Made by a program: the position numbers and the translations under genes. Under the pieces are notes generated by a model that was not told the origin of the DNA, ran no database searches, and was given only the letters and a program-made list of their open reading frames with translations. Shown here piece after piece: positions 22,710 to 41,105 of a DNA stretch of 64,000 bases. The stretch is from contig CAZEJS010000001.1 of assembly GCA_964512645.1 (NCBI GenBank), positions 64,825 to 128,824 of the forward strand. Reading direction: 5' to 3'. The stretch is from an uncultured Acidimicrobiales bacterium (lineage in GTDB: Bacteria; Actinomycetota; Geothermincolia; Fen-727; Anoxymicrobiaceae). Within the stretch, counting starts at the first letter, position 1, and each line of letters opens with the position of its first letter.

Positions 22710-23900
22710 TCAGCCCTCGCCGTCGGGGCCCAGCGACTCCAGGACCAGCGATACCAGGTCCACCACCGGGAGACCGCCGTCCCGCTCCGCGGCGCCGGCG
22801 AGGTTAATCTCGCAGAACGGGCAGCAAGTCACCAGCACCTCCGAGCCGGTCTCCTCCGCCTCCGCCTGCCGGGCCGAGGCGATGTCCAGGGCGACAGAGG
22901 CGTGGCCGGTGCGCAGGCCGCCCCCCCCGCCGCAGCACCGGGAGTTCATGCCGGTCCGGGCCATCTCCGAGACCTCTACGCCGGGCAGGGCCGCGAGCAC
23001 CCGGCGGGGCGCGTCCACCACGCCCCCGTGCCTCGCCAGGTGGCAGGGGTCGTGGTAGGTGACCTTCCGCTCGAGGGGACGGGGCGCGAGCCTGCCTTCT
23101 TCCAGGAGCGAGGCCAGGACCTCCGACATGTGCAGAACCTCGACGTCGAAGGTGGCCACCTTTGGGTACTCGTGCTTCATGATGCCGTAGCAGCCCGCGC
23201 AGGCGGTGATCACCCTGTCCACCCCCAGCGCGTTTATCCTCTCGATGTTCTTCGCCGCCTGGGCGGCGAACACGTCCTTCATCCCCACGCGCATCGCGGT
23301 GCTGCCGCAGCAGACCTCCTCGCGGCCCATTATGCCGAAGTCCACCCCCGCGGCCGCCAGCACCCCGGCGGTGGCCAGGGCCACCTCCTGCATCTCCGGG
23401 AGGTAGGCGGCGGTGCACCCGGGATAGTAGAGCGTGTCGGATTTCTGCTTCGGAAGCACCTTGACGCGGCCCTTGAGCCTGCGCGCCCAGCGGTCCCGCT
23501 GCGCGCGGGGCATCTGCCAGGGGTTGTCGTAGTTCTGCACGCTGCGGACCATCTCCATCTGCGGCTCGAGGGGGCCCCGGCCTTCGCGCACCATCTCGTC
23601 ACGCAGGAGGTTTACCAGCTCGGTGAGCCTGATCCCCATCGGGCACCGCACCGCGCAGGAGTAGCAGGCGGAACAGTAGTAGACGACCTCCGGCCGGAGC
23701 ACCTCTTCGCGGCCGCCGGTGAGCACCAGTCGGACGATCTCCCGCGGCCCGAGGTCGCTGTAGGCCGCAACCGGGCAGGAGGCTGTGCACGTCCCGCACT
23801 GCAGGCACGAGGTCACCTTGTCGCGAATCCCCGAGCCGCCGACGACCTGTTCGAAGAACTCGCCGGTGAACCCGGTCAGGGGCTTCCTCCCGTCGCTCAT
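22710..23900 (-). CDS. HdrD/GlcF-like iron-sulfur protein (two 4Fe-4S motifs plus two CCG domains)
   Basis: CLQCGTCTASCP and CSACYSCAVRCP ferredoxin motifs. CCG-domain cysteines (CCGSTAM, CCGGGGG, CCPFC). ATG 23900 with GGGGAG RBS. Confidence 0.75.
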   Translation of the reverse strand: MSDGRKPLTGFTGEFFEQVVGGSGIRDKVTSCLQCGTCTASCPVAAYSDLGPREIVRLVLTGGREEVLRPEVVYYCSACYSCAVRCPMGIRLTELVNLLRDEMVREGRGPLEPQMEMVRSVQNYDNPWQMPRAQRDRWARRLKGRVKVLPKQKSDTLYYPGCTAAYLPEMQEVALATAGVLAAAGVDFGIMGREEVCCGSTAMRVGMKDVFAAQAAKNIERINALGVDRVITACAGCYGIMKHEYPKVATFDVEVLHMSEVLASLLEEGRLAPRPLERKVTYHDPCHLARHGGVVDAPRRVLAALPGVEVSEMARTGMNSRCCGGGGGLRTGHASVALDIASARQAEAEETGSEVLVTCCPFCEINLAGAAERDGGLPVVDLVSLVLESLGPDGEG

Positions 23901-23919
23901 CCCACTCCCCGCGCCTTTC

Positions 23920-24699
23920 TCATCCCGCCCCGGCGGTCTCGCCCGCCAGGTAGCCCAGTATCTCCGAGCGCAACCGTATGAACTCCCCGTCCGTCCGGTT
24001 CCTGGGGTACGGCTGCGCGTTGGCGAAAGTCCGGACCACACGTGCCGGACGCCCGGACAGCCCGACGATCTCCCCCCCGAGGTAGACGGCCTCGTCCACG
24101 GAATGGGTGACGAAGACCACGGTCTTGCCGGTCTTCTCCCAGAGCTCGACCAGAAAGGCCTGCATGGCGTTCCTGGTCTGAGCGTCGAGGGAAGCGAACG
24201 GCTCGTCCATCAGCAGCACCGCGGGCTCGACCGCCAGCGTCCGGGCGATGGCGACCCTCTGCTTCATCCCGCCGGAGAGCTCCCGGGGGTACAGGTCATC
24301 GTGCCCGGTCATCCCAACGACCCGGAGGTACCCGTCGGCCCTGCCGCGCGCTTCCCGCCGCGACACACCCGCGATCTCCAGGCCGAAGGAGACGTTGCGC
24401 GCCGCGGTGCGCCAGGGGAAGAGCGCGTACTCCTGGAAGACCATCCCCCGCTCCGGGCCCGGGCCCTCCACCGGGACGCCCTCGAAGAGGACCTCCCCGG
24501 AAGTCGGCGCCAGCAGCCCGGCGATCAGCCTCAGCAGGGTAGTCTTGCCGCAGCCCGACGGGCCGACGATGCAGGTCAGGGCCCCTTCGGTCACGTCGAG
24601 ATCGATCCCGTCGAGGACCTCGAGTTCCCTGCCGCTCTTCTGTTCGCTGAACGATTTGCGCAGGCCCCGCAGCGAGAGCAGGGACCCGCCGGCCCTCAT
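23920..24699 (-). CDS. ABC transporter ATP-binding protein (NitT/TauT family)
   Basis: Walker A GPSGCGKTT, ABC signature LSGGMKQRVAIAR, Walker B LLMDEPFASLD. ATG 24699 in an ATGA overlap with the permease stop. The upstream 253 aa of the 512-aa track ORF is artefact. Confidence 0.85.
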   Translation of the reverse strand: MRAGGSLLSLRGLRKSFSEQKSGRELEVLDGIDLDVTEGALTCIVGPSGCGKTTLLRLIAGLLAPTSGEVLFEGVPVEGPGPERGMVFQEYALFPWRTAARNVSFGLEIAGVSRREARGRADGYLRVVGMTGHDDLYPRELSGGMKQRVAIARTLAVEPAVLLMDEPFASLDAQTRNAMQAFLVELWEKTGKTVVFVTHSVDEAVYLGGEIVGLSGRPARVVRTFANAQPYPRNRTDGEFIRLRSEILGYLAGETAGAG

Positions 24700-25448
24700 C
24701 TCCACCTCAACAGCCTCTTTTCGACAATCCTTATCAACCGGTCCGCCAGGAAACCGATCACACCGATGACCAGGATGCCGGCCACCAGCAAATCGAAGCG
24801 CGCCAGGTCGCGGGCGGTCATTATCATGTAGCCAAGCCCGTAGCCGTTCTTCACCCCGATGAGCTCGGCCGCCACCAGGGTCATCCAGGCGATGCCCATG
24901 CCTATGCGCACCCCGGTGATGATGGAGGGAGTGGATCCCGGCACCAGCACCCTCCATAGGATGGTGCCCTCCCGCGCCCCCAGCGTCCGGGCCGCCTCCA
25001 CCAGGCGGGCGTCCACCCCCTTCACCCCCAGGACGGTGTTCAGCACGATCGGGAAGAAGGCCCCCAGCGCGATAATGAACGCGGCGGAGCCCAGCCCGAG
25101 CCCGAACCACACCAGGGCCAGGGGCAGCCAGGCCAGCGGGGGCACCGGCCTGACGACCTCCACCAGCGGGTCCACCGCGGTCTCGAACCACTTCGACCAC
25201 CCCATGAGTATCCCCATGGGGACCGCTATCACCAGGGCGATGCCGAAGCCGGTGAACACCCGCAGGAGGCTGTAGGCGACGTGTCCCTGCAGGTGGTACC
25301 CCCGGGGCAGGCCGGTGGCGGCGAGGTCGTAAAGCCCTTTCAGGACGTCCCACGGCGAAGGCGTCGCCCTCCCCAGCGCCCCGGTCACCGCGAGCGCCTG
25401 CCACACCGCGAGCGCCGCGAGCGGCGAGGCCAGCTTCCACTTCTTCAC
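24696..25448 (-). CDS. ABC transporter permease (NitT/TauT family, SsuC/TauC-like)
   Basis: Six hydrophobic segments and the permease EAA-like loop (LVEAARTLGAREGTILWRVLVP). Confidence 0.8.
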   Translation of the reverse strand: MKKWKLASPLAALAVWQALAVTGALGRATPSPWDVLKGLYDLAATGLPRGYHLQGHVAYSLLRVFTGFGIALVIAVPMGILMGWSKWFETAVDPLVEVVRPVPPLAWLPLALVWFGLGLGSAAFIIALGAFFPIVLNTVLGVKGVDARLVEAARTLGAREGTILWRVLVPGSTPSIITGVRIGMGIAWMTLVAAELIGVKNGYGLGYMIMTARDLARFDLLVAGILVIGVIGFLADRLIRIVEKRLLRWR

Positions 25449-26455
25449 TTGCCGTCACCGGGGATGAAGGAGCTGTCCACCATGGACCTCGCGAAGGCGG
25501 CGGGGTTCTTCTCCTTGATCACCCCCTGCCCGGCCATGAACACGGCGTACTCCCCAATCTTCCTGACGTCCGGCCTGAAAGAGAAGCCGATGTTCTTCAT
25601 CGCGGCCCTGACGACGTCCGTCGGCTGGCCGGTGAACAGGTGCGCCATGTCGGCGGCCTCCAGCCGGTTGTCCCTGATATACCTGGTAGCCTTGACGTGG
25701 GCGGCGACGAAGCGCCTAACCGCGTCGGGGTTCTTCTCGATGAAGGCCGAATCGGCGACCACCATGCAGCACGGGTGGTCCGGCCAGATCTCCCGGGAGC
25801 TCAGAAGCGTCCTCCCCGCACCCTGGGCCCGGGCCATCGACGGGTAAGGTTCCCAGGCGAGGGCCGCGTCAACCTGGGCCCCGGCGAGAGCCGGCAGCAT
25901 CTCCGGGGGCTTGAGCACCGTCTTCCTGACCTGCGAAGGTTCCATGCCCGCCTTCTCCAGCGCGCGATGAAGCAGGAAGTCCTGCACGGTGGAGAGGCCG
26001 GGGACGGCGATCGTGCGCCCCTCGAGGTCGGTAATTTCCTTTACGTCGAGCCCCGGCCGCACTATCAGGGAGGTCCCCCCGGTATTCGCCTGGGCCACTA
26101 TCTTCACGTCGGCCATGCGCTGTCCGGCGAAAGTCAGGCACGGCGCCGTCCCCACGTAGCCGATATCGAGGTCTCCCGCCGAGAACGAACTCATCTCTTC
26201 CGGGCCGGCGTTGAAGGCGCCGCCCTCCCGGATGTCCAGGCCCTGCTCCTTGAAAAAACCTTTCTCTCTGGCGACGTAGAAGGCGAGCTGGTGCAGGTCG
26301 TTCCGCAGGAACCCCACCCTCACCACCCTGGAAGCGGATTCGGAGCCGCCGCACCCGGCGCCGGCGGTCACCAGCGCCCCGAGCAGCACCGCCGCGCAGG
26401 CGCACGCCAGGCACGCACTCGCGGAACGCCATGGTCCAACGCGGGTCTGTTTCAT
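25445..26455 (-). CDS. ABC transporter substrate-binding lipoprotein (NMT1/SsuA/TauA-like)
   Basis: Signal peptide with lipobox-like AGAGC. Periplasmic-binding-protein fold length (~336 aa). Its start overlaps the HdrA stop. Confidence 0.7.
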   Translation of the reverse strand: MKQTRVGPWRSASACLACACAAVLLGALVTAGAGCGGSESASRVVRVGFLRNDLHQLAFYVAREKGFFKEQGLDIREGGAFNAGPEEMSSFSAGDLDIGYVGTAPCLTFAGQRMADVKIVAQANTGGTSLIVRPGLDVKEITDLEGRTIAVPGLSTVQDFLLHRALEKAGMEPSQVRKTVLKPPEMLPALAGAQVDAALAWEPYPSMARAQGAGRTLLSSREIWPDHPCCMVVADSAFIEKNPDAVRRFVAAHVKATRYIRDNRLEAADMAHLFTGQPTDVVRAAMKNIGFSFRPDVRKIGEYAVFMAGQGVIKEKNPAAFARSMVDSSFIPGDGK

Positions 26456-28395: not shown

Positions 28396-29713
28396 CGGTG
28401 CCGGTCCCTCCGCGCTCGTCCGTCCCGCGCCGCCGCTCCTCGAGTCGCAGCTCGAAGTACAGCGAAAGAAAACCTGCGGTGAGCTCCTTGAGCATGGTCA
28501 ACAGCGACGCGGCCTCCGCCTGCGACTCCTGGTTCGACCGTACCGCAACGGAAAGCTCTTTAGCAAGGTCGCACGCCCGGGCGTACCCCTCGGCGAGCCG
28601 CTCCAGCTCCGCGCAGGCGCCGAGCGTCCCCCCGGCGGACCGGCGTTCCAGGTACGGCAGGCGGTCCCAGGCGTACTGCAGGAACATCCGTATTTTCTCA
28701 GGCTCCCAGACCTTCACCCCTATCTTCCAGGTGACCTGGGAGCGCTCGAGTCCGTACCCCACGATCCGCGCGTTGGAGACCTGCCTCTTTATCTCCAGGA
28801 GCGACCGGGAGACCTCCGGGCGGCCTTTGCACACCGACGCTCCCCGGCGGGTCGCGCCCCCGCCTGGGGCCCTCGCCCTCCGTGGGGAGGTCCTCCCGCT
28901 GTGCTCGACGAACATCTCCCCCATCAACGCGTTGGCCTCGGGGAAGTGCGGGTGCTCCAGGTGCGGTCCGCTGGCGACGGCGACGCCGTCGCCCAGCTCC
29001 TGGAAGACCACCGCCTGCCTGCCGGCGATGAAGCTCCCGGCGCGCTCGCGCGGCCAGAGGAACGCGGCGCGCGACGCGGCGGAGGCGTAGTCGGCAAGCG
29101 AGCGCGCCTCCCCGGCGGACATCACCGGCCCCCCGAAGAGCGGGGCGGAGATCTCCGCGGCTTCCCGGAACGCCAGCATCCCGGGAGCGGGCCCCCGGGG
29201 GAGGAGCGCGACCTCACCGTACACGGGGTGGAAGACCCACTCCCTCCCGTACGGCGCGAGGTACTTGTGCTCGAGACAGAGCGGCGCGGGCGGGTCATCC
29301 ATCACGTTGAGCATGTCCGCGTCCACCAGCCGGAACGGGGTGAACGGCTCCATGTCAACGCCCCGAAGGACCAGGTAGCCCCCGGCGCAGGAGCCGTGAT
29401 AGAAGCCCCCGCCCCTGACGAACTCCTCCAGGCGCCGGGCCCCGTCGGTGCCCAGGGAGCGGGCCATGGCGTAGGTGTCCCCGCCGCCGACCAGCATGAT
29501 GTCCCTCGTTTCCAGTGCCCCCTCGAGGACGTCATGGTGGGTAAGGAAGCGGACGTCGAAGGTCTCCAGTCTCTCCAGCAGGTCGGCGAACCATATCCAG
29601 GAGTGCGAGGCGCCCTCGCCGCAATAGACCGCCACCCCCGGCTCGCCGGCGAGCCTGGCGGCGAGCGAAGTTAGCGCCCGGTGGCGCGCCGTCCTGGGGG
29701 TACGCCGTTTCAC
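28388..29713 (-). CDS. BPL_N-like (biotin-protein-ligase N-terminal, class-I glutamine-amidotransferase-like) domain protein, function unknown
   Basis: VAVYCGEGASHSWIWFADLLE..IMLVGGGDTYAMARSLG..GGGFYHGSCAGGYL resembles the BPL_N/GATase1-like fold. Helical C-terminal ~170 aa. GTG start 29713 is uncertain. Confidence 0.4.
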   Translation of the reverse strand: MKRRTPRTARHRALTSLAARLAGEPGVAVYCGEGASHSWIWFADLLERLETFDVRFLTHHDVLEGALETRDIMLVGGGDTYAMARSLGTDGARRLEEFVRGGGFYHGSCAGGYLVLRGVDMEPFTPFRLVDADMLNVMDDPPAPLCLEHKYLAPYGREWVFHPVYGEVALLPRGPAPGMLAFREAAEISAPLFGGPVMSAGEARSLADYASAASRAAFLWPRERAGSFIAGRQAVVFQELGDGVAVASGPHLEHPHFPEANALMGEMFVEHSGRTSPRRARAPGGGATRRGASVCKGRPEVSRSLLEIKRQVSNARIVGYGLERSQVTWKIGVKVWEPEKIRMFLQYAWDRLPYLERRSAGGTLGACAELERLAEGYARACDLAKELSVAVRSNQESQAEAASLLTMLKELTAGFLSLYFELRLEERRRGTDERGGTGTDG

Positions 29714-29719
29714 GATCCC

Positions 29720-30988
29720 TCAGCCGAGCATCCCGGCAAGGTCGTCCGGTCCCGCCTCCAGGCCGGCCGCCGGAGCGCAAAGCGCGGCAAGCGCCTCCAG
29801 TTCCACCCCGGACATCAGCAGGAAGGTGGGGCAGACCCCCAGCACGTAGCCGACGCGGTTCGCCCGCGCCCACTCCTCCGCCGAGCCCAGGGGGGGCACC
29901 CAGGAGCCGAAGAGGCCTTCGCGGCCCCGGTCCCCGATCGGCCATGCGGCCTCCGGCACGTCCTCCAGCTCTTTGACCGCGGTCACGATCTCTTCCTCGC
30001 TGGTGAGCGGCGAACCAGCGAGCCGGCGCGCCGCCCGGAGCTGGTCGATCCCCCGGCGGGCCGAGGCCTCCAGGGCCATGCAGGCGGCGGCGGGTTCCCA
30101 CCCGCCCTCCTTCAGCCAGAGGGCCGCAGCGGCCCCGGCTACCAGCATGCCCGGCTCCTCGACGTCCCCGGCCTCCATGACCGAGGGCGCCTCGCGGTAC
30201 TTGGCGAAGGTGGCGCATGCGTAAGGGCACGCGAAACAGGACCTCGTCCGGTGGGCGACCGGCGTCAGCCACCCGTCGAGGTCGGGCGCCCCCAGCCGTT
30301 CGCACAACGCCCGGAACCCCCGGTGGGATTCGACCCCGCCGAACAGGGCGACCGCGCCATCGTAGAACTCCCGGGGGTCGTCGGCGTCTATCATGCCAAG
30401 CCCGCGCACCGCCAGCGCCTTGAGGTTCTTCCGCCCCATGACCGCACCGAGCGCGGCGTCGTCACCGGAACCCCAGTAGTTGTTGGAGATCGACGCCATC
30501 GGCGAGCCCGCCTCGCCGGCGGGACCGATGCAGAGCACCTGTATGAGGCTCTCCCCCATCTCCCGCCTGATCGCGTCGGTGGCATGCCAGGTATCCAGGC
30601 CCCAGAGAGCCGAGGCGTCTTCGATGTCGGGCACCCCGTCGTGGAGCCACAGGTAAACCGGCGAGGCCGAAGCGCCTTTGACCACCACGATCCCGAACCC
30701 CGACAGCTTCATCTCCACGCCCGCGAACAGGCTCAAGGGGGCGACCGCCGGCTCCCCGGTCTGCGGGCTCTTGCCCAGGACGAAACCAAGGCACGACGCC
30801 GGCACCGGCGTGCCGGTGAGCAGCCCGGAGCCGAAGACGAGCGGGTCCGAATCGGCGTGCTTCCTGTAAAGCGCCAGCGCCGCGGCGAGCCCGGGCCCCG
30901 CCTCGTCAGCCTCGTCGAACGGGACCTGCTCGGTGGTACCGGCCTCGAGGTCGACTATGAGCGTGTCCCCGTAATACATGGAGTCCAT
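29720..30988 (-). CDS. Aldehyde:ferredoxin oxidoreductase (AOR)-family protein, unusually short (~420 aa)
   Basis: AOR N-terminal domain (MYYGDTLIVDL..PLVFGSGLLTGTPVPASCLGFVLGKSPQTG), GAVMGRKNLKALAVRG, and the AOR 4Fe-4S motif CxxCxxxC (CFACPYAC). It lacks ~180 aa of the canonical C-terminal domain. Start at ATG 30988 (GAGGAG, spacing 6). Confidence 0.6.
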   Translation of the reverse strand: MDSMYYGDTLIVDLEAGTTEQVPFDEADEAGPGLAAALALYRKHADSDPLVFGSGLLTGTPVPASCLGFVLGKSPQTGEPAVAPLSLFAGVEMKLSGFGIVVVKGASASPVYLWLHDGVPDIEDASALWGLDTWHATDAIRREMGESLIQVLCIGPAGEAGSPMASISNNYWGSGDDAALGAVMGRKNLKALAVRGLGMIDADDPREFYDGAVALFGGVESHRGFRALCERLGAPDLDGWLTPVAHRTRSCFACPYACATFAKYREAPSVMEAGDVEEPGMLVAGAAAALWLKEGGWEPAAACMALEASARRGIDQLRAARRLAGSPLTSEEEIVTAVKELEDVPEAAWPIGDRGREGLFGSWVPPLGSAEEWARANRVGYVLGVCPTFLLMSGVELEALAALCAPAAGLEAGPDDLAGMLG

Positions 30989-30998
30989 TGGCATCTCC

Positions 30999-31349
30999 TC
31001 ACTCGACGTAGAGCGCGCCCTGCGGGCACACGGCCACGCACTGGGGCTCCAGCCCGGCGCTCTCGCACATGTCGCACGCTTCCCTTATCAGGATCGGCTT
31101 GGCCGACGCGCCACCGCCGCCGCCCTTCTGCAGGTCTCCCAGCTTGACGGCGCCCGCGCCCTCCGGCCTTCCCAGGAATAGGTCCTCTCCGGTCTTCACC
31201 ATGAGCCCCATGTAGTTCTTTTTCTCTTCGGCGCGGTGGAGCATGATGCTCGAAGAGATGAGGGAAAACGCCTCGTCCCAGTGGTATCCGCAGACAAGCT
31301 CGCACAGCGCGCAGCCCGTGCATTCCAGCGGCTTGATCTTGACCCTCAC
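30999..31349 (-). CDS. 4Fe-4S ferredoxin-domain protein
   Basis: CTGCALCELVC and CDMCESAG..CVAVCP motifs. 116 aa. Immediately upstream of the AOR-like gene. Confidence 0.65.
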   Translation of the reverse strand: MRVKIKPLECTGCALCELVCGYHWDEAFSLISSSIMLHRAEEKKNYMGLMVKTGEDLFLGRPEGAGAVKLGDLQKGGGGGASAKPILIREACDMCESAGLEPQCVAVCPQGALYVE

Positions 31350-31380
31350 CCCGACCTCCTTCTCGCGGCCCCCGCGCTTC

Positions 31381-32130: not shown

Positions 32131-32226
32131 GCCATCACCCTCCCCCGTGGCGCTTGCCCGAGGAGCGCGTTCCATCCCTTCGAGCGGCGGACACGGCCCG
32201 ACCCGCGGGGCCGCAGGGACGATCCG

Positions 32227-33909
<1,683 letters not shown>

Positions 33910-33944
33910 TTCGCCCTCCCCGGCCCGCGGTCCCCCGGACCGCT

Positions 33945-34718: not shown

Positions 34719-34745
34719 CGTTCTCTCCTCCTGTGTCGTGCCCCG

Positions 34746-36281
34746 TCAGACCCCCGCCTGGTCGGCGGATATGCCGTGCCGTCCGGGGTTCATCATGTTC
34801 AGGGGGTCCAGCTCGCGCTTGAGCGCCTTCAGCAGGTCGAAGTACGTGCCCAGCAGGGGCGTCTGCACCCAGCCGAAGCCGGACCTCTCGCCGCCGTAGG
34901 GCCTGTCGAACATGCCGCCAGACTCGCATATGAACGGGATGGCGTCGCGCGCCATGGCCATGCCCTTCTTGATCCCCTCGGGCTCCCCCTGGTTGGGGTA
35001 GGCGTCCATCTCCAGCATGCCGCTCCTTCCGAACTCCAGCGGCTGGAGGTAGAAGGTCGTCTCCTCGAACGGGTACGGCCTGTCGGCCTTCTCCGGGTCG
35101 GTGTCGGCGAAGTTTTTGCGCGCCAGCTTCATGAACTGCCTGGCGAACGTGGCCGCCTGCCCCATGGGGATGTTGAACCAGAACAGCTCGAAGCAGCCGG
35201 AGAGCCTCTCCACCCTGGGGGTGACCTGTATGATCTTGAACACCCGCTTCCACGGCACCAGCTCCTTGAGGAGCTCCAGCATCATGTCCGGCGAAAGCCC
35301 CGCCCCGGTCCTCTCGACGATCGCGTCGAGCTGCTCCCGCCTTATCTCCAGTTCCTCCTCGGTCTCTCCTCCGTAGTAGACCAGGGCGCTCTGCCGGGGC
35401 ATCTGGGCGCGCAGCGTCTCCGCGCCCTCCTGGTTGGGGGTCACGCCGAGGGCGAGATACCCGTCCTGGAACAGTATGGTCTCGAAGCTGCAGTCCTCCC
35501 TGGCGACCTGCCTGAGGAACTCGCTCACCCCGTCCAGGTCGTCCTCGGGAAACTCCGCGGGCATGATCTCCTCGTGCACGGGCATCGGGTAGAGCTGGGC
35601 CACCATCTCGGTGCAGATGCCCATCGTGCCTATCGAACCCTGGAAGACCCCGGAAATGTCCGGGCCCGGGCCTTCGACGCAGATCGGACCGTAGTTGTCC
35701 TGGTGCAGGCAGCCGGTGCGGAGAATCTCCCCGTCAGGCAGCACCACCACCAGGCCCAGTATGGAGTCGGTGCCGACCCCGTACTTGTTGGACACCTGGA
35801 ACACTCCTTTGTCCAGGTAGTTCGCGAGCATGGACACGCTGGCCGGCGCGCTGGGGACCGGGTTGCGCAGGCCCACTTTCTCCACCTCGACATAGACCTT
35901 GCCGAACGTCGCCGCGGGCTGGATGCGGCAGCACATGTTCTCCACGTCGATCTCCAGCACCCTGTCCATCCGCCTCATGTCCACGGTGACTCCGCCCCTC
36001 TGGGGTATGCACCCGCCGCCGACGTTGCCCCCGGTGGACCAGGCGACAACCGGGGCGCCGTAACGCCTCGCGGCTTTGACCACCTTCGCGACCTGCTCGG
36101 TGGACTCCGGAAGGACCACTATGTTCGGGTTGTGAGCGACCTCGAGGCTCTGGTCGCGCGAATACCCTATGAGGATGACCGGGTCGTCGGTGGCCCACTC
36201 GTCGCCCACTATCTTCTTGAGCTTCCCCAGAAGCTCCGTGTACGTCTCTTTCGTCGTGAGGTCTACCTGCTTGACTGCCAT
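34746..36281 (-). CDS. FAD-linked oxidase (GlcD / D-2-hydroxyacid dehydrogenase-like, PCMH FAD-binding)
   Basis: FAD_binding_4-type region (VVLPESTEQVAKVVKAARRYGAPVVAWSTGGN) plus a FAD-oxidase C-terminal domain. 511 aa. Confidence 0.75.
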   Translation of the reverse strand: MAVKQVDLTTKETYTELLGKLKKIVGDEWATDDPVILIGYSRDQSLEVAHNPNIVVLPESTEQVAKVVKAARRYGAPVVAWSTGGNVGGGCIPQRGGVTVDMRRMDRVLEIDVENMCCRIQPAATFGKVYVEVEKVGLRNPVPSAPASVSMLANYLDKGVFQVSNKYGVGTDSILGLVVVLPDGEILRTGCLHQDNYGPICVEGPGPDISGVFQGSIGTMGICTEMVAQLYPMPVHEEIMPAEFPEDDLDGVSEFLRQVAREDCSFETILFQDGYLALGVTPNQEGAETLRAQMPRQSALVYYGGETEEELEIRREQLDAIVERTGAGLSPDMMLELLKELVPWKRVFKIIQVTPRVERLSGCFELFWFNIPMGQAATFARQFMKLARKNFADTDPEKADRPYPFEETTFYLQPLEFGRSGMLEMDAYPNQGEPEGIKKGMAMARDAIPFICESGGMFDRPYGGERSGFGWVQTPLLGTYFDLLKALKRELDPLNMMNPGRHGISADQAGV

Positions 36282-36294
36282 GCGACCGCCCTCC

Positions 36295-37497
36295 TCAACC
36301 CATCGACTCGCGCACCAGCTCGAGTATGTCCAGAAGCTCTATCCTGCCGCCCGTGGCGTCGCCGAGGTTCTGCTCGCAGAACGGGCATGAGGTCACCAGC
36401 GCTTCCGCCCCGGTGCTCATGGCCTCGCGGACCCTCTCCCCCGCGACCCAGAGGGCGAACTCGGGAAACGCCGACTTGACCCCGGCGCCGGCGCCGCAGC
36501 AGAACGCGTTGGCCCTGTTGCGGGGCATCTCGACCAGCTCGATGCCGGGTACCGCCTCGAGCACGCTGCGCGGCGCGTCGTACACCCCGGTGTAGCGCCC
36601 GAGGTGGCAGGGGTCGTGGTAGGTGACCTTTTTCTTCACCGGTTTCTTGAGCTTGATGTCGCCGGAGCGGATGAGCTCGTCGATCAGCTCCAGCGAGTGG
36701 GTCACCGTGGAGGACAGCCCGCCGAACTCCTCGTACTCCTCGCGCAGGATGGAATTGCAGCCCGAGCAGGATGTCACGATCCTCTCGGAGGAGACCGATT
36801 CGAGCGACTCCATGTTCATCAGCGCGCGCTTCCGGTAGGCGTCGTAATCCCCCATCCGCAGGAGCGTGCTCCCGCAGCAGAGCTCGTCCTTGCCCAGCAC
36901 GCCGAAGGGGACACCGGCCTTCAGGAGGATCTCCGCGGTGGCCCTGGCGATCCCCTGCAGCTTCGGGTCGTACGCCGCGGTGCACCCGACGTAGTAGAGG
37001 ACTTCGACCTTCTGCTTCCGCGCGTCGGGGAGCCCCATCTTCTTCATCCAGACGTCGCGCCTCGCTCTCGGCTGCTGCCAGGGGTTGTCGTAGTTCTCCA
37101 TGGATTTGATGAGCGTCTCGTGCTCGGGGAGCGGGGCCAGTTCGTCCCGGAACGCCCTCTCGCGCAGAGCCACGATGGTCTTCAGCGGGTTCTTGTTGCC
37201 CTGGTCCGAGCAGATGACCTGGCAGCCGCCGCACTCGGTGCAGGTGAAGAGCACGTGCTTGAGGGAGTCGCTGTACTCGAGGCTGCCCTCGAGCAGGCCC
37301 CGGGCTATCTCCTGCCTGCCGGAGGCGTAGTAGGCCTCGTACTTGTAGCGCAGCCCCGAGGGGCAGATCCCCATGAAATCGGTGTCGGTTATCTCCTCGT
37401 GGTCTATGTACTTGCACAGCATGCACTTGCCGCAGCGGTACGAGTCCTTCTGGACCTGCAGCAGGGGGTCGTACGGGTTCCTGGTCAAGTCTGACAC
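36295..37497 (-). CDS. GlcF/HdrD-like iron-sulfur subunit (2x4Fe-4S plus 2 CCG domains)
   Basis: CGKCMLCKYI../CTECGGCQVIC ferredoxin motifs. CCG motifs (CCGSTLL, CCGAGAG, CPFCE). Confidence 0.75.
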   Translation of the reverse strand: MSDLTRNPYDPLLQVQKDSYRCGKCMLCKYIDHEEITDTDFMGICPSGLRYKYEAYYASGRQEIARGLLEGSLEYSDSLKHVLFTCTECGGCQVICSDQGNKNPLKTIVALRERAFRDELAPLPEHETLIKSMENYDNPWQQPRARRDVWMKKMGLPDARKQKVEVLYYVGCTAAYDPKLQGIARATAEILLKAGVPFGVLGKDELCCGSTLLRMGDYDAYRKRALMNMESLESVSSERIVTSCSGCNSILREEYEEFGGLSSTVTHSLELIDELIRSGDIKLKKPVKKKVTYHDPCHLGRYTGVYDAPRSVLEAVPGIELVEMPRNRANAFCCGAGAGVKSAFPEFALWVAGERVREAMSTGAEALVTSCPFCEQNLGDATGGRIELLDILELVRESMG

Positions 37498-37498
37498 G

Positions 37499-38833
37499 TC
37501 ACACCTCCACTACCTGTCCGGAGTTCAGCATGTCCTCGGGGTCGACGATCTCCTTGAGCCGCCTGAGCATCTTCATGTACGAAGCCTGCTTCTTGAAAAT
37601 ATGGGTCGCGAGCGAGCCGGTGGGGTTGGGGAAGAATGCCCCCTCGTCGGCCAGCTTGACGAGGAGCTCCTTAACCGCGTCCGCCGCGCCGGGCCCGGGC
37701 TCGAGCACGTCGAACTGCAGGTACGCCGAGGCGCCCCTCTTCACGGGGATCACCATCGCCGCCGTCTTTCCCTTGCCTTTGAGCCCCGCTTCGGCGATGC
37801 CCGAGAGCTCCTCCACCCGTGAGAAGCTCGTGTAGAAACCGAAGGAGACTTCGGGCGCGTACCAGGGCCGGCCCAGCGCCTCCCCGGCGGCCTCCGCCAG
37901 CTTCGCCTTGCCGGCGGCCGGCCGGAGCTTCAGCTCGGCGGCCAGCTCGTCGATCCTCTTCTCCTGGTAGGCCACCAGCCGCGGGCTGCCCTCCAGTCCG
38001 AATACGACCGTCCACGCGGAGAGCCCGGCGTCCTCGCCCATTACCTCGACGGCCTTGGCCTTGCTCAAGACCAGTATCTCGGTACCCACCTCGGACCTGG
38101 CGCACCTCCGGGCCAGGGAGCAGGCCTGCCCGCGGGTCGTAAAACCTCTCACGGCGACACCGCTGTCCTCGGGCTCGGGGTACAGGAACACGAAACCTCC
38201 GAGGGGTATCCCGAAGGAGTTGCGCGAGCCGGTGAAGACCTTGCTGATGTTGGGCCCGCCGTCCTCCCGCCAGTGGGTGGTGGAGTTCGGGAGGGCGTCG
38301 GAGCCGGAACGGTATTCGCGCCCGTCGGCGAGCATGGCGTGGAAAGTCGCCAGTTGCCGGTTGGTGAAACGGTTCGCGGCCAGAACCACCTCGCGTTCCA
38401 GCGCGCTTTCCAGGATGTAAGGGGAGCGCGCCGCCGCCGGCAGCGCCACCCTGACGCCGGCCGCCGCCAGCTCGGGCAGGGCCTGCTCCCATGTCACCCC
38501 GGGCTGAACGTGCAGGTACAGGTTGGTGGCGTCGATGGACTCGATCTTGCACATGTTTCTGAAATCGACCACCACCCCCGGCCTCGCGGGGGCGAGCCCC
38601 CACGGCAGGGGGGTGTAGACCGACAGGCCGTACGCCCTGGCCACGGAGAGTACGTGTTCGATGTCCGTCCGCCCCCGGGGGTAGACCACGCAAATCACGT
38701 TCCCTGCCGGATGGCCGTCCTCGAGGTACGACGCGATGGTCGCCTCGTCATCGGAGAACCGCCTCGGGTCCACCATGATCTCGCGCAGTCTCGCCCTGGC
38801 GAACGCCGGGTCGGGTCCGCTCCTCGCTGCCAT
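37499..38833 (-). CDS. FAD-binding oxidase subunit (GlcE-like)
   Basis: PCMH-type FAD-binding N-terminal region (VICVVYPRGRTDIEHVLSVARAYGLSVYTPLPWG). ATG 38833 with AAGGAGG RBS. The stop lies 1 nt before the GlcF-like start. Confidence 0.6.
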   Translation of the reverse strand: MAARSGPDPAFARARLREIMVDPRRFSDDEATIASYLEDGHPAGNVICVVYPRGRTDIEHVLSVARAYGLSVYTPLPWGLAPARPGVVVDFRNMCKIESIDATNLYLHVQPGVTWEQALPELAAAGVRVALPAAARSPYILESALEREVVLAANRFTNRQLATFHAMLADGREYRSGSDALPNSTTHWREDGGPNISKVFTGSRNSFGIPLGGFVFLYPEPEDSGVAVRGFTTRGQACSLARRCARSEVGTEILVLSKAKAVEVMGEDAGLSAWTVVFGLEGSPRLVAYQEKRIDELAAELKLRPAAGKAKLAEAAGEALGRPWYAPEVSFGFYTSFSRVEELSGIAEAGLKGKGKTAAMVIPVKRGASAYLQFDVLEPGPGAADAVKELLVKLADEGAFFPNPTGSLATHIFKKQASYMKMLRRLKEIVDPEDMLNSGQVVEV

Positions 38834-38998
38834 GCATCCTCCTTTCCGCCAACGTACCGTGGAAAGCTCGCGGGTTGTGGCACCGGCATGGATCCAGGAT
38901 GCGCGTGCCACCCGCGGGTCCTCCGGTCCGCCCCGCTCCACCTCGTTCAAACCCGTCCGCAGTGCTACCGCGCCCCACGGGGGTGCGGTGTCCGCGTT

Positions 38999-39964
38999 TC
39001 AATCCTCCAGCCCGAGGGCCCTCGCCAGCTCGTCGGCCGCGCCGTGGGGATCCAGCTCGCGGGCCGCCATCCTCTCCGTCAACCCGGCCGCCGCGCCTCC
39101 CTCGCCCAGCGCGTCGAGCGCGAGCGAGGCCACCCGCAGGCTGAGAATGCCCAGCGCCTCGGCCTTCATCCTCTGGAGGGTCTTCTTCTCGAGCATGCCG
39201 CTCTCCACCAGGTAGCGCCTGTGAAGCGCCACCTGCCGGGCCAGCTCGTCCACGCCTCCGCCCTCGAGGGCGGAGGTCGCCACGACCGGAGGCTTCCGTC
39301 CGGCGCCAACGTGGTCCGGCCTGGTATCGACCATCATCTCCAGGTCGGCGACTGTGCGCATGGCCCCCTCGCGGTCGGACTTGTTGACCACGAAGATGTC
39401 GGCTATCTCCAGGATGCCCGCCTTGATCGCCTGTACCTCGTCTCCGGCGCCGGGCATCGTCACCACCACGCATGTGTGCGCGAACTTCACAATGTCTATC
39501 TCCACCTGGCCCGCGCCTACGGTCTCGACAATGACGTACTCCTTGCCGAAAGCGTCGAGCACGTTGATCACGTCGTTGGTCGCAACGGACAGGCCGCCCT
39601 GCGCGCCCCGGCTCCCCATGCTCCGGATGAACACCCCGGGGTCCGATGAGAGCTCCTGCATCCTGACCCGGTCCCCCAGCAGGGCGCCCCCGGTGAAGGG
39701 GCTCGTCGGATCGACGCAGACGATGCCTACCGACGAACCTTCCTCCCGGAAATGTGCCGCCAGCCTGCACGCCAGCGTGCTCTTGCCGCTGCCCGGGGAA
39801 CCGGTGAGGCCGATGATATGGGCCTTCCCCGAGTGGCGGTGCAGCCGGCGGAGGATCTCCCGCGCGCCGTGCTCGCCGTTCTCCACCATGGTGATCAGGC
39901 GGGCGGCCGCCCTCCGGTCCCCCGAAAGGAGCTTCTCGTACAGCTCCCCGGCGCCGCCCTTCAA
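38999..39964 (-). CDS. meaB: Methylmalonyl-CoA-mutase-associated G-protein chaperone (MeaB/ArgK family GTPase)
   Basis: P-loop GLTGSPGSGKST, G-motifs DPTSPFTGGALLGD and NKSD. ~320 aa. Confidence 0.85.
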   Translation of the reverse strand: MKGGAGELYEKLLSGDRRAAARLITMVENGEHGAREILRRLHRHSGKAHIIGLTGSPGSGKSTLACRLAAHFREEGSSVGIVCVDPTSPFTGGALLGDRVRMQELSSDPGVFIRSMGSRGAQGGLSVATNDVINVLDAFGKEYVIVETVGAGQVEIDIVKFAHTCVVVTMPGAGDEVQAIKAGILEIADIFVVNKSDREGAMRTVADLEMMVDTRPDHVGAGRKPPVVATSALEGGGVDELARQVALHRRYLVESGMLEKKTLQRMKAEALGILSLRVASLALDALGEGGAAAGLTERMAARELDPHGAADELARALGLED

Positions 39965-40362
39965 GGCCGGCCTCTGCGTTCCTCGATGAACGCGACGATG
40001 TCGCGCGTGTCGGTGCCCGGCCCGAACACCCGGGCGACGCCGTGCTCGCGCACCAGGACCTCCGCGTCCTCCGGAGGTATCACGCCCCCGGCGATAACCG
40101 TGATGTCGGCGGCGTCGTTCTCTGCGAGCAGCCCGGTTATGCGCGGTATCAGGGCCATGTGCGCCCCGGAGAGCATCGATAGCCCCAGCACGTCCACGTC
40201 CTCCTGGAGGGCCGCCTCCACCAGGTTCTCCGGCGTCTGCTTGAGGCCGGAGTAGATGACCTCCATGCCCGCGTCCCGAAGCGCCTGCCCGACTATCAGC
40301 ACGCCCCTGTCGTGCCCGTCGAGGCCCGGCTTGCAGAGGAACACCCGGATCTTCCTACCCAT
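39961..40362 (-). CDS. Cobalamin (B12)-binding domain protein (mutase small subunit)
   Basis: [36 protein letters not shown] contains the DxHxxG B12-binding motif. Start M13 at 40362. ATGA-type overlap with the MeaB start. Confidence 0.75.
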   Translation of the reverse strand: MGRKIRVFLCKPGLDGHDRGVLIVGQALRDAGMEVIYSGLKQTPENLVEAALQEDVDVLGLSMLSGAHMALIPRITGLLAENDAADITVIAGGVIPPEDAEVLVREHGVARVFGPGTDTRDIVAFIEERRGRP

Positions 40363-40975
40363 CCGCACCCCTCCCCGCGATAACCCTGCCGGAACCATCC
40401 CCGTCTTTCACGCAGATGCCGTGGGCGATCAGCTCCAGTATCGACGAATAGACATCCTCCAGCGAAAGGCTCGTGCCCAGCAGAAAGTCCGGGGCCATCG
40501 TTGTCACCAGGGTGCCTTTGAGGGCGGCTATGGTCACGTTGGTATCCAGGCCATCCTTGAAGACGCCCTTCTCCTTGCCCTCGTCGATGACCGAGCGGAT
40601 CTCGGAGACTATCTGCTCCTCGGCGCCGCGGACCCGCGCCCAGAGGTCCGGCAGCTCTCTCTGGAGGTCGATGAGGGCTACCGGCGTTATACCGGGGTAC
40701 GGCAGTTCCATGAAGAACCTGGAAAGGCTGCGAAGCTTCTCCAGCGGATCCGCCCCGGAGCCGATGATAGCCCGCATCCGGGAGGAGAAGACCTCGAGCT
40801 CGCTTTCCACCACCTCGGTGGCGATGGCGTTCTTGGAAGGGAAGTTCTCGTAGAGGGTTCGCTTGCTCATGCCCGCGCGGCGCGCGATGTCATCCATGGT
40901 AGTTGTCCTGTACCCCCGGACCAGGAACTGCTCACGCGCGGATGACAGGATCTTTTCCTTTAGAGGTTCGCCCAC
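40355..40975 (-). CDS. TetR/AcrR-family transcriptional regulator
   Basis: N-terminal HTH (GYRTTTMDDIARRAGMSKRTLYENFPSKNAI). ~206 aa. GTG start 40975. First gene of the long minus-strand operon. Confidence 0.8.
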   Translation of the reverse strand: MGEPLKEKILSSAREQFLVRGYRTTTMDDIARRAGMSKRTLYENFPSKNAIATEVVESELEVFSSRMRAIIGSGADPLEKLRSLSRFFMELPYPGITPVALIDLQRELPDLWARVRGAEEQIVSEIRSVIDEGKEKGVFKDGLDTNVTIAALKGTLVTTMAPDFLLGTSLSLEDVYSSILELIAHGICVKDGDGSGRVIAGRGADG

Positions 40976-40994
40976 GTACCGCTCCTGAAAACCA

Positions 40995-41015: not shown

Positions 41016-41105
41016 CGGTTCAAGATACTATCAAGCCGCGCGAGAAAAGGTCAACACCTGAATCGGCACGGCTTCCGCGCCCGGTTTTTCACCGTGACGC
41101 ACCAC

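Follow-up and report, generated by a model that had tools for sequence, protein, structure and literature searches.

In the 2-hydroxyisobutyryl-CoA mutase (HCM) system (HcmA/HcmB/MeaH; PDB 4R3U), the B12-dependent acyl-CoA mutase is built from a separate large subunit and a B12 subunit and is accompanied by a MeaB-type chaperone. In the acetone clusters of the sulfate reducers Desulfosarcina cetonica and Desulfococcus biacutus, a mutase, a B12 subunit and MeaB are encoded together with a FabG-like short-chain dehydrogenase/reductase (SDR), and a thiamine diphosphate (TDP) enzyme is needed; it has been shown experimentally that the FabG-annotated SDR is a 3-hydroxybutyryl-CoA dehydrogenase that acts after Hcm. 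Here we describe a cluster of about 19 genes, in which a mutase of the same subunit plan is combined with redox and transport genes, in a 64,000-nucleotide stretch of DNA from an uncultured Acidimicrobiales bacterium (assembly GCA_964512645.1, contig CAZEJS010000001.1, positions 64,825 to 128,824 of the forward strand; the whole stretch is referred to below as the window). Every part of the cluster comes from a known superfamily; what is new is a mutase subfamily with the signature Phe/Ala/Ala/Gln (FAAQ), the pairing of a shortened relative of aldehyde ferredoxin oxidoreductase (mini-AOR) with a glutamine amidotransferase (GATase)-like protein, and the combined system, which is undescribed.

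As in the acetone pathway of sulfate reducers, a FabG-annotated SDR adjoins the mutase genes of this cluster. That pathway, however, lacks the Hdr, mini-AOR, GlcDEF and ABC transporter context, and its mutase differs in the signature residues (Ile90/Asp117/Gln208/His in HcmA). Pfam and NCBIfam searches of the 19 cluster genes detected neither a thiamine pyrophosphate-enzyme domain nor a 2-hydroxyisobutyrate (2-HIBA)-CoA ligase. Identity with the acetone pathway, which depends on the TDP enzyme and has no Hdr, AOR or GlcD genes, is thus rejected. A preliminary description of this DNA, made from the sequence without database searches, proposed a conserved anaerobic pathway that maps to no described one; this claim stands, given the synteny reported below, the different composition of the known 2-HIBA/acetone cluster, and the lack of any description of this gene set in the literature searched. 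All homologs are annotated in general terms, e.g., as 'methylmalonyl-CoA mutase family protein', as 'aldehyde ferredoxin oxidoreductase N-terminal domain-containing protein', as 'BPL-N domain-containing protein' or just as 'hypothetical'.

The redox genes resemble parts of several other systems. Tungsten AORs (PfAOR, 1AOR; AorABC, 8C0Z; BamBC, 4Z3W; bifurcating AOR, 9MQX) have in common with mini-AOR the fold (TM-score 0.73–0.79, normalized to the query, for the 422-aa model) and a sequence-recognizable N-terminal domain, and the small Fe-S subunits AorA and BamC form a pairing like that of the cluster ferredoxin encoded upstream of mini-AOR; unlike mini-AOR, none of the known AORs has a GATase-fold partner. 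GlcDEF and the D-lactate dehydrogenase of sulfate reducers (GlcD-like plus HdrD-like) combine two FAD_binding_4 proteins with a Fer4/two-CCG protein, as does the cluster, and their CCG subunits hand electrons to membrane or Hdr partners. HdrA of the methanogen HdrABC and HdrA2B2C2 complexes can be aligned end to end with the cluster protein, and the HdrD-like protein is likewise a fusion of HdrC and HdrB; here, however, the host is bacterial, three transporter genes lie between HdrA and HdrD, and there is no MvhD, hydrogenase, formate dehydrogenase or CoM/CoB context.

Organization and conservation of the cluster

Genes were called in the window (G+C ~67%) from an open reading frame (ORF) listing, frame analysis of third-position G+C (GC3) and inspection of start codons and ribosome-binding sites, and families were assigned with Pfam and NCBIfam. 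An unbroken run of 17 minus-strand genes occupies positions 22710–40975 (Table 1). The preliminary description had listed the same 17 co-directional genes, and each of the families it named was upheld by the searches. Independent gene calls on a public contig with identical genes give the same protein lengths. The genes within these limits stand, but the low boundary does not: the conserved same-strand block goes on downstream with the alpha subunit of an ADP-forming acyl-CoA synthetase (ACD) and then a Mmp4/MtxX-like gene, so that synteny in related metagenome-assembled genomes (MAGs) moves the boundary to 20305. Similarly, the 'MCM large #2' of that description is the only mutase large subunit in the cluster; the other one belongs to an isobutyryl-CoA mutase (ICM)-type enzyme encoded elsewhere in the window.

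The spacing figures given earlier were reproduced. Overlaps of 4 nt join the B12 subunit and MeaB genes, HdrA and the substrate-binding protein (SBP), SBP and permease, and permease and ATPase, and overlaps of 8 nt join TetR to the B12 subunit and BPL_N to HdrA. Gaps separate MeaB from the GlcE-like gene (165 nt) and the mutase large subunit from SDR (96 nt); three others measure 27, 35 and 31 nt. The GlcE-like protein has 480 aa in the NCBI call, and such a start cuts the 165-nt gap to ~57 nt. Co-expression of the cluster is suggested by the location of the B12 subunit and MeaB genes upstream of GlcE-F-D with the large subunit downstream, by the coupling overlaps that span module borders (BPL_N/HdrA and HdrA/SBP), and by the lack of terminator-like hairpins within any intergenic gap of the cluster, their total count being not above that in shuffled sequences. 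We tentatively view the cluster as one substrate-inducible operon or as two to four co-regulated units, the chances being just short of even.

The nearest NCBIfam models of the TetR-family regulator are acyl-CoA/fatty-acid-responsive TetRs (FadR, FasR), all of them far below cut-offs. The 118-bp divergent intergenic region upstream of the TetR gene contains a promoter-like TTGACC-N18-TAGTAT element; just downstream of it, 15–45 nt before the start of TetR, lies an AT-rich inverted repeat of 12 nt. This is the textbook arrangement of a TetR operator, which makes the repeat a candidate operator. No Rfam element or riboswitch was matched in positions 16000–48000.

To assess conservation, one genome per GTDB species was scanned with the mini-AOR family alignment, which gave 281 relatives, and the comparison was continued with the best 80 loci (loci are denoted below by L numbers); the 19 cluster proteins were compared by BLASTP with all ORFs of these loci, and 77 of them could be classified. 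On contigs with mini-AOR homologs, the same order from TetR to the HdrD-like gene is found at 70% identity in a Ca. Geothermincolia MAG, at 59% in an Actinobacteria MAG and at 43% in a third lineage, and ACD-alpha and the 250-aa Mmp4-like protein come next wherever these contigs reach far enough. Altogether, at least 12 MAG loci from actinobacteria show this order, with proteins 42–90% identical to those of the window, so the arrangement is not due to chance. In the neighborhood comparison across public genomes and MAGs, the genes thus act as a single unit in evolution, with gene order and tight spacing kept down to ~42% protein identity and the mutase subunits split around GlcEFD. The closest of the 80 loci belongs to a 98%-identical MAG, JPNA_maxbin.176. 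The host of the cluster would accordingly be an uncultured anaerobic actinomycete with kinship to Geothermincolia/Anoxymicrobiaceae. TetR is the first gene also in L002, L004, L012, L013, L018, L020 and L024.

Among the best 80 of the 281 loci, the full gene set is found only in Actinomycetota (labeled Geothermincolia, Ca. Anoxymicrobiaceae and similar). The constant part in this phylum comprises the B12 subunit and MeaB, followed by SDR, ferredoxin, mini-AOR, BPL_N, HdrA, SBP and HdrD; SDR lies directly upstream of ferredoxin in every actinobacterial locus that covers this junction, and ACD-alpha is conserved in L005, L012, L016, L017 and L022. Composition varies around this part, and in L014 to L016 the string crotonase-mutase-SDR is placed upstream of GlcEFD. 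In L002, an additional gene for a 258-aa protein without a Pfam match (14553–15329), not found in the window, lies between HdrA and SBP. MAG labels need care in such tallies: L016 is labeled 'Acidimicrobium ferrooxidans', yet groups with Geothermincolia-like loci, and L064 (Anaerolineales 'Chloro_02') and L066 (Syntrophobacterales 'Delta_01') contain an identical 7169-bp contig_3408 with the core genes, i.e., are a binning duplicate.

The 43 loci from Desulfobacterota and other bacteria and the 11 archaeal loci encode no mutase, MeaB, HdrA, ACD or TetR. Ferredoxin adjoins mini-AOR in nearly all of them (41/43 and 11/11, respectively), and BPL_N is present in 34 and 5. Over the 77 classified loci, ferredoxin precedes mini-AOR in 71, and 55 have the GATase-fold partner (BPL_N). 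Bacterial core loci often add one or two CCG proteins, GlcD-like flavoproteins and SBP-permease-ATPase genes; none of the archaeal loci has ABC transporter genes, and CCG-protein matches occur in two. The cluster as a whole is thus a mosaic and not a single indivisible pathway. One part, shown by these comparisons to recur across Actinomycetota, Desulfobacterota and Archaea, is a predicted redox module of the small ferredoxin, mini-AOR and the GATase-fold protein (the core), usually accompanied by an HdrD-type CCG protein, GlcD/E/F-like subunits and a NitT/TauT ABC importer. The other part consists of the actinobacterial additions, namely HdrA, the FAAQ mutase with its B12 subunit and MeaB, crotonase, SDR, ACD-alpha and the Mmp4-like protein.

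Families of neighboring genes were delineated by all-against-all clustering followed by Pfam and NCBIfam annotation. In the typical Desulfobacterota layout, one strand encodes GntR, a CoA-acylating methylmalonate-semialdehyde dehydrogenase (TIGR01722, 537 bits vs 448-bit cut-off), a GlcD-like protein and a CCG protein. The divergent strand begins with ferredoxin, mini-AOR, BPL_N, a multihaem cytochrome c, cytochrome b561 and a cytochrome-c/NarI-like fusion, and continues with an HdrD-like protein, a 262-aa protein of no known family (unk262), SBP, permease, ATPase, a radical SAM protein (MSMEG_0568 family, 374 bits vs 304-bit cut-off) fused or adjacent to GNAT (MSMEG_0567/Sll0786, 100 bits vs 68-bit cut-off), and an sll0787-like AIR-synthase protein. 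The cytochromes c and b and the NarI-like subunits, which make up a Tmc/Hmc-like conduit for electrons across the membrane, here take the place that HdrA has in Actinomycetota. The hosts of the core include Syntrophales, Desulfomonilaceae and Desulfobacteraceae. The locus of Desulfosarcina cetonica (JCM 12296, L068), an acetone degrader in culture, combines ferredoxin and mini-AOR with a Phenol_MetA_deg porin, an AMP-forming ligase, a GlcD-like protein and a CCG protein. Two Desulfomonilaceae/Syntrophaceae MAGs (L025 and L026, 2900–16900) depart from the common accessory set: the genes that surround their core encode two histone-deacetylase-family amidohydrolases, an FGE-sulfatase/EgtB-C-like protein and a MoxR-type AAA ATPase, as well as a Psr/Phs-like molybdopterin oxidoreductase that is TAT-exported and has NrfD and 4Fe-4S subunits.

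The acyl-CoA mutase and the redox proteins

The mutase large subunit has its best PDB match in HcmA, which is aligned over the full length and ahead of methylmalonyl-CoA mutases (MCMs) and IcmF. The cluster also follows the split plan of HCM and ICM (IcmA/IcmB/MeaI), with the large subunit, B12 small subunit and MeaB-family GTPase encoded together, and the fold is that of ICM and MCM. Active-site residues were placed by counting along the HcmA alignment, which reproduces the literature numbering of Ile90, Asp117 and Gln208. At these three positions and at that of MCM His244 the cluster protein has Phe, Ala, Ala and Gln. This FAAQ signature is invariant in 15 syntenic orthologs and in all 76 full-length database matches with at least 62% identity; matches below ~60% identity all have the pattern of ICM (FAQH) or that of MCM (YARH). 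In the alignment with 1REQ (P. shermanii numbering), Tyr89 and Arg207 of MCM, which bind the carboxylate, and its catalytic His244 are replaced by Phe, Ala and Gln. The Phe is shared with ICM, in which Phe80 and Gln198 are the equivalents of MCM Tyr89 and Arg207, but Gln198 is replaced by Ala; likewise, all three of the HCM residues are exchanged, including Ile90 and Asp117, by which HCM positions the hydroxyl of its substrate. These residues rule out a canonical MCM, ICM or HCM.

Because Tyr89 and Arg207 are lost, a carboxylated substrate is excluded, and the loss of Asp117 and Gln208 removes the hydroxyl/polar contacts of HCM. Most simply, the substrate would be a non-polar or bulkier branched acyl-CoA. 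We propose that the FAAQ proteins are a new subfamily of predicted acyl-CoA mutases. If so, B12-dependent acyl-CoA mutases would gain a sixth specificity class, searchable by the Phe/Ala/Ala/Gln signature; such mutases are wanted for branched-chain and hydroxy-acid bioconversions, work on an engineered lactyl-CoA mutase being one example of this interest. The window's second mutase has the FAQH pattern and is encoded in an operon with its own B12 subunit, crotonase and acyl-CoA dehydrogenase; given this ICM-type operon, the cluster mutase is not redundant but a distinct paralog.

A second tier of FAAQ mutases (62–69% identity, partly from Thermodesulfobacteriota) is found in beta-oxidation-like clusters with acyl-CoA dehydrogenases, thiolases with DUF35/ChsH2 partners, crotonase, family III CoA-transferase and OYE-type reductases, and one of these loci repeats the string mutase, B12 subunit, crotonase, SDR. 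On a metagenome contig (L090, 12227–16058), the FAAQ cluster is accompanied by a full-length AOR (636 aa, AFOR_N plus AFOR_C), a Fer4_11 subunit and a FAD protein, an AorABC-like set; thus, both full-length and mini AORs occur beside FAAQ mutases. In another locus (L092, 6719–9106), a beta-keto acid cleavage enzyme (BKACE) domain fused to an OYE/Pyr_redox protein is encoded right beside the FAAQ mutase.

Mini-AOR has 422 aa as compared to ~600 aa of genuine AORs (600–650 aa in the solved enzymes), and AFOR_N alone is detected in it, with no AFOR_C. About 65 database clusters are homologous to it, all with proteins of ~420 aa. An AlphaFold2 model (pLDDT 90.8) has the AOR fold over the whole 422 aa, and the top nine Foldseek matches in the PDB are all of the AOR family (TM-score 0.67–0.79, normalized to the query); about 180 aa of AOR domains 2 and 3 are missing. 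In the profile alignment to 1AOR, Arg76, Asn93 and Arg182/Ala183 of PfAOR correspond to invariant Leu67, Pro84 and Gly173/Ser174 of mini-AOR. These PfAOR residues are the ligands of the pterin phosphates and the bridging Mg in 1AOR. The CxxCxxxC [4Fe-4S] motif is retained in the actinobacterial proteins (C251/C254/C258 plus the Cys of 'GICP') and is aligned to the AOR motif; in the Desulfobacterota proteins C251 alone remains, i.e., three of the four [4Fe-4S] cysteines are lost. Other invariant residues of mini-AOR belong to the motifs WLHD and HRxxC. The term 'truncated AOR-family enzyme' in the preliminary description suits this AFOR_N-only protein with an AOR fold, but the tungsto/molybdopterin enzyme also invoked there does not, since the protein is ~180 aa shorter and invariant Leu, Pro and Gly replace the pterin/Mg ligands. 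On the same grounds of length and ligand loss, a functional tungsten AOR or a BamB analog is rejected. Judging by sequence, mini-AOR is probably an AOR-derived, pterin-free subunit, and a role as a scaffold or substrate-binding subunit is more likely than that of a tungsten catalyst. If this is correct, the AOR family has a pterin-less offshoot that is usually paired with a GATase-fold protein and linked to HdrA or to Tmc/Hmc-like cytochromes. The ferredoxin contains one CxxCxxCxxxC and one CxxC...CxxxCP motif and matches AorA, BamC and HycB weakly.

The BPL_N family is small, with 135 representatives at E ≤1e-30 among 1.84 billion sequences. The model of the cluster protein (pLDDT 89) has a class-I glutamine-amidotransferase fold, with matches to Pdx2, TrpG and ThuA, followed by a C-terminal helical bundle that has no PDB match. 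A role as biotin-protein ligase can be dismissed given this architecture, which has no ligase domain. The invariant motifs GSC109AGAY and GPH251LE253H254P (Cys109, His251, Glu253 and His254) suggest a Cys/His/Glu triad.

HdrA has the full-length architecture (N-terminal, FAD and two ferredoxin domains), and its residues 4–646 align to 13–653 of methanogen HdrA; it scores 818 bits against NCBIfam HdrA2, below the 1100-bit cut-off, and is a member by fold and sequence, not an equivalog. In the distal protein, an HdrC-like domain for two [4Fe-4S] clusters is joined to an HdrB-like one that has two CCG motifs, which fits the definition of HdrD. The GlcD-, GlcE- and GlcF-like proteins, encoded in the order E-F-D, share only the architecture of GlcDEF, with scores far below the equivalog cut-offs (101 vs 568, 29.5 vs 284 and 42 vs 333 bits, respectively). 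In the 511-aa GlcD-like subunit the FAD domain alone is recognizable, the substrate domain is not, and the protein is equally close to D-lactate dehydrogenases and to PCMH/VAO oxidases. SBP scores above the cut-off of the broad SsuA_fam subfamily model but below those of the TauA and SsuA equivalogs; among solved structures, TauA, SsuA and NrtA are nearest to it, TauA being weakly similar (E 5e-17). Neither the permease nor the ATPase reaches any NCBIfam cut-off. The nearest structure to the last gene product is MtxX (methanogen marker 4), which has a phosphotransacetylase (PTA)-like fold.

Possible functions

We tentatively favor, at a probability slightly below one half, a TetR-controlled catabolic operon for an imported small organic anion, in which an Hdr-coupled oxidation is combined with a mutase that linearizes a branched acyl-CoA. 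The NitT/TauT system would import the anion, and a flavo-Fe-S complex formed by the GlcD/E/F-like proteins, ferredoxin, mini-AOR, the GATase-like protein and the CCG subunits would oxidize it. We infer that the electrons pass via the CCG proteins and HdrD to HdrA, where flavin-based confurcation or bifurcation with ferredoxin could take place; in Desulfobacterota they would go to the Tmc/Hmc-like cytochrome c/b membrane complexes, HdrA being the cytoplasmic alternative. The FAAQ mutase might then rearrange a branched, non-carboxylated acyl-CoA (tertiary or 2-methyl) to give a linear 3-hydroxy- or enoyl-CoA, which crotonase and SDR would carry to the 3-oxoacyl-CoA, in parallel with the pair of Hcm and the FabG-like dehydrogenase. 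ACD-alpha and the PTA-like protein could serve to activate the acid or to recover ATP from the thioester, and TetR would derepress the operon upon binding the substrate or an acyl-CoA intermediate. The methylmalonate-semialdehyde dehydrogenase of Desulfobacterota offers only a lead, hinting at C3/C4 3-hydroxy acids or their semialdehydes on the route.

Several observations weigh against this scheme. The carbon path is incomplete, as the cluster encodes no thiolase, acyl-CoA dehydrogenase or CoA-transferase, and no ACD beta (ATP-grasp) subunit was found next to ACD-alpha, its neighbor being the PTA/Mmp4-like gene. The substrate of the FAAQ mutase is not readable from known signatures, given the absence of HcmA Ile90 and Asp117 and the presence of Gln in place of the catalytic His244, and the SBP family also transports nitrate, bicarbonate, cyanate, sulfonates and pyrimidine precursors. 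The redox reaction may run in the oxidative or the reductive direction. Moreover, GlcEFD and crotonase are missing from L019 and L021, as are the mutase large subunit and crotonase from L017 and L024, and the modules are separable in general, with the core found elsewhere without the mutase and FAAQ mutases without the core. Finally, conservation of the TetR palindrome is not demonstrable, because the orthologous loci end there or show other palindromes.

Whatever its substrate, a catabolic system of this kind would point to an unrecognized, widespread reaction by which subsurface and sediment organisms metabolize carbon, or carbon-nitrogen/sulfur, compounds anaerobically, and would provide a bacterial, non-methanogenic context for HdrA, HdrD and homologs of methanogenesis markers 2 and 4. 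Its module boundaries and signatures make it directly testable even without the substrate.

A further possibility, unlikely in our estimate, is that ferredoxin, mini-AOR, the GATase-like protein and the CCG protein form an unrecognized cytoplasmic redox enzyme. Its ancestor would be a tungsten AOR in which the pterin was lost and another active site or cofactor acquired, and the accompanying Nit1C-type radical-SAM/GNAT/AIR-synthase genes might serve in its maturation. It would have spread over Actinomycetota, Desulfobacterota and Archaea that live anaerobically, and in actinomycetes would be joined to HdrA bifurcation and feed the FAAQ mutase with a substrate outside those of MCM, ICM, HCM and the ethylmalonyl-CoA (ECM) and pivalyl-CoA (PCM) mutases; this substrate could be that of a natural version of a 'new-to-nature' rearrangement, e.g., 3-hydroxypropionyl-CoA to lactyl-CoA.

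The separability of the modules raises the question of whether a mutase/beta-oxidation module and an unrelated redox/ABC module have simply come to lie head to tail, with TetR controlling the first few genes only. Such juxtaposition would account for the core without mutase, HdrA, ACD and TetR in the 43 bacterial and 11 archaeal loci, for the FAAQ mutases in clusters without the core and for the actinobacterial variants that lack GlcEFD and crotonase or the mutase large subunit and crotonase, and the gaps of 165, 96 and 191 nt could house internal promoters. We nevertheless deem it improbable: the B12 subunit and MeaB, SDR, core and HdrA are contiguous in every sufficiently long actinobacterial locus at 42–90% identity, and in the cluster itself the split of the mutase subunits around GlcEFD, the translationally coupled overlaps over module borders and the freedom of the gaps from terminator-like sites all point the other way.

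The importer suggests a different substrate class. In the preliminary description a sulfonate was considered on the basis of the transporter family, but NitT/TauT is broad and no desulfonating enzyme is present. An organosulfur (sulfonate or thiol) route, with TauA/SsuA-like import of a sulfonate and HdrA/HdrD-type redox chemistry on a disulfide or sulfite-level intermediate, would be consistent with the SBP score above the SsuA-family cut-off and the nearest solved structures (TauA, SsuA), with two HdrB/C-type CCG proteins next to a genuine HdrA, and, in other loci, with the CoA-acylating semialdehyde dehydrogenase of the Desulfobacterota versions and the Psr/Phs-like molybdoenzyme of one variant. 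The family of the former includes the sulfoacetaldehyde dehydrogenase SauS. However, the TauA similarity is weak and the SBP family also binds nitrate, bicarbonate and pyrimidines; CCG proteins serve lactate, glycolate, glycerol-3-phosphate and succinate dehydrogenases too; and it is not obvious what a B12 acyl-CoA mutase would do in the degradation of a sulfonate. The loci inspected showed no gene for Xsc, a glycyl-radical desulfonase, SuyAB/CuyA, a sulfite exporter or Dsr, and we rate this route as somewhat more improbable still than mere juxtaposition.

The accessory genes of the Desulfobacterota loci recall Nit1C, a cluster of six or seven genes (nitrilase, radical SAM, GNAT, AIR synthase, flavoprotein), as the radical SAM, GNAT and AIR-synthase-like proteins that accompany the core there are of the same TIGRFAM families. 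The cluster could accordingly be imagined as an anaerobic counterpart directed at the nitrogen of nitriles, cyanohydrins or amides: the GATase-like protein would stand in for nitrilase, the GlcDEF-like proteins would oxidize the 2-hydroxy acid produced, and a tertiary 2-hydroxy acid (e.g., 2-hydroxyisobutyrate from acetone cyanohydrin) would be rescued by the mutase. The radical SAM, GNAT and sll0787-like AIR-synthase genes follow the core in Desulfobacterota and some Actinomycetota, an AIR-synthase-like gene is kept in the window, the transporter family includes cyanate and nitrate importers, and the invariant Cys/His/Glu of BPL_N suggests a C-N hydrolase. Unlike Nit1C, the cluster, as well as the Desulfobacterota layout, has no nitrilase; YchN-like ORF1 and the MSMEG_0569 flavoprotein are missing too, and the hosts are anaerobic. 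We hold the nitrogen reading to be very improbable, since a nitrilase is absent and profiles of the Desulfobacterota unk262 and radical SAM/GNAT families have no match in the window; the AIR-synthase-like gene, the only one of the set there, scores 264 bits vs a 321-bit cut-off. Furthermore, the mutase lacks the hydroxyl-binding Asp117 of HCM, hydrolytic nitrogen scavenging would leave the HdrA/cytochrome redox machinery unexplained, and Nit1C has no established function itself.

A reductase like BamB-I (class II benzoyl-CoA reductase), with tungsten-dependent enoyl-/aryl-CoA reduction driven by HdrA bifurcation, is suggested by a subunit set that resembles BamB (AOR), BamC (ferredoxin), BamD (HdrD-like) and BamE (HdrA-like), by BamB 4z3w among the top structural matches (TM-score 0.79, normalized to the query), by BamC and AorA among the weak ferredoxin matches and by hosts such as Syntrophales, Desulfomonilaceae and Desulfobacteraceae, but is hardly credible given a mini-AOR of 422 aa as opposed to 653 aa in BamB, invariant Leu, Pro and Gly in place of PfAOR Arg76, Asn93 and Arg182, the loss of three of four [4Fe-4S] cysteines in Desulfobacterota, and the absence from the cluster of BamF, BamGHI or MvhD-like genes.

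Neighboring genes

Table 1. Features of the cluster and of the surrounding window. Bit scores are followed by the cut-off of the model where it is exceeded.
Feature	Position	Strand	Basis or remarks
Candidate TetR operator, 12-nt inverted repeat AACCAATAAAAC-N7-GTTTTATCGGTT	40990-41020	.	Sequence only
TetR-family regulator, 206 aa	40355-40975	-	Pfam TetR_N E 4e-16
B12-binding small subunit of acyl-CoA mutase, 133 aa	39961-40362	-	PF02310 E 3e-24; TIGR00640 154 bits (57)
MeaB-type G-protein chaperone, 321 aa	38999-39964	-	TIGR00750 340 bits (241)
GlcE-like FAD_binding_4 flavoprotein, 444 aa	37499-38833	-	Pfam; alternative start 38941
GlcF/TfrB-like Fe-S protein, 400 aa, Fer4_8 and two CCG domains	36295-37497	-	Pfam/NCBIfam
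GlcD-like FAD_binding_4 flavoprotein, 511 aa, divergent substrate domain	34746-36281	-	Pfam/NCBIfam
Crotonase-type enoyl-CoA hydratase, 257 aa	33945-34718	-	ECH_1 E 3e-63
Acyl-CoA mutase large subunit, 560 aa, FAAQ subfamily (proposed)	32227-33909	-	HcmA 4R3U E 3e-149
FabG/acetoacetyl-CoA-reductase-like (FabG/PhaB-like) SDR, 249 aa	31381-32130	-	Pfam/NCBIfam
Small ferredoxin, 116 aa, trimmed AorA/BamC/HycB-type Fe-S subunit	30999-31349	-	Pfam; weak AorA/BamC/HycB matches
Mini-AOR, 422 aa, AOR fold, AFOR_N only	29720-30988	-	Pfam, AlphaFold2 model/Foldseek
BPL_N/class-I glutamine-amidotransferase-fold protein, 441 aa	28388-29713	-	Pfam, model
Full-length HdrA, 647 aa	26452-28395	-	PDB 8rvu_a E 1e-209; NCBIfam HdrA2 818 bits
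NMT1/SsuA-family SBP, 336 aa	25445-26455	-	TIGR01728 180 bits (163.5)
NitT/TauT-family ABC permease, 250 aa	24696-25448	-	Pfam/NCBIfam
ABC ATPase, 259 aa	23920-24699	-	Pfam/NCBIfam
HdrD-type protein, 396 aa, HdrC-like and HdrB-like fusion (two CCG domains)	22710-23900	-	Pfam/NCBIfam
ADP-forming acyl-CoA synthetase (ACD) alpha, 462 aa	21130-22518	-	TIGR02717 E 2e-102, below cut-off; synteny
Mmp4/MtxX-like protein, PTA-type fold, 250 aa, last gene	20305-21057	-	TIGR03270 E 3e-44, below cut-off; PDB 9nzy (MtxX) E 2e-30
S8 subtilase, 1035 aa, fervidolysin-like prodomain, DUF5719-like C-terminal region	17045-20152	-	Immediately downstream of cluster
L,D-transpeptidase (YkuD)	15699-16949		
Upstream ORF of second mutase operon	13578-14534	-	May be MeaB
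ICM-type mutase large subunit, Phe/Ala/Gln/His	11917-14115	-	True start probably near 13500
B12 small subunit, second operon	11481-12008	-	
Crotonase, second operon	10508-11383	-	
Acyl-CoA dehydrogenase, second operon	9207-10418	-	
Membrane-anchored protein, Pro/Thr/Gly-rich 'GTQIPSGTPMPSGT' repeats	41094-41858	+	Divergent from TetR
Polytopic membrane protein	41765-42601	+	Divergent from TetR
AIR-synthase-like protein (sll0787/Mmp2-like), separate transcription unit	42614-43585	-	NCBIfam
Radical SAM/SPASM protein, nearest AhbD/NirJ-type	46139-47491	-	Far below cut-offs
267-aa protein without family match	47558-48361	-	Follows radical SAM/SPASM gene
BKACE	50833-51717	+	10 kb from cluster

The AIR-synthase-like gene may be an accessory of the cluster, since its family recurs with the core in Desulfobacterota and in other Actinomycetota. 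It is Mmp2-like, so that close relatives of two 'methanogenesis markers', this one and the Mmp4/MtxX-like gene, bracket the cluster in a bacterial genome; in Methanomicrobiales, mmp2 and mtxX are adjacent (PMC12978539).

The two plus-strand genes divergent from TetR were considered as missing members of the cluster and rejected, as they encode membrane proteins without a family match and are probably unrelated. Both are conserved at this position in L017, L019, L021 and L024, again with no family assignment. In the window, their frames overlap by ~90 nt and the start sites are uncertain. Genes related to that of the radical SAM/SPASM protein are found near mini-AOR in L028, L035, L080 and L083. 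On the other side, the L,D-transpeptidase gene beyond the subtilase has counterparts that adjoin the cluster in L005 and L006.

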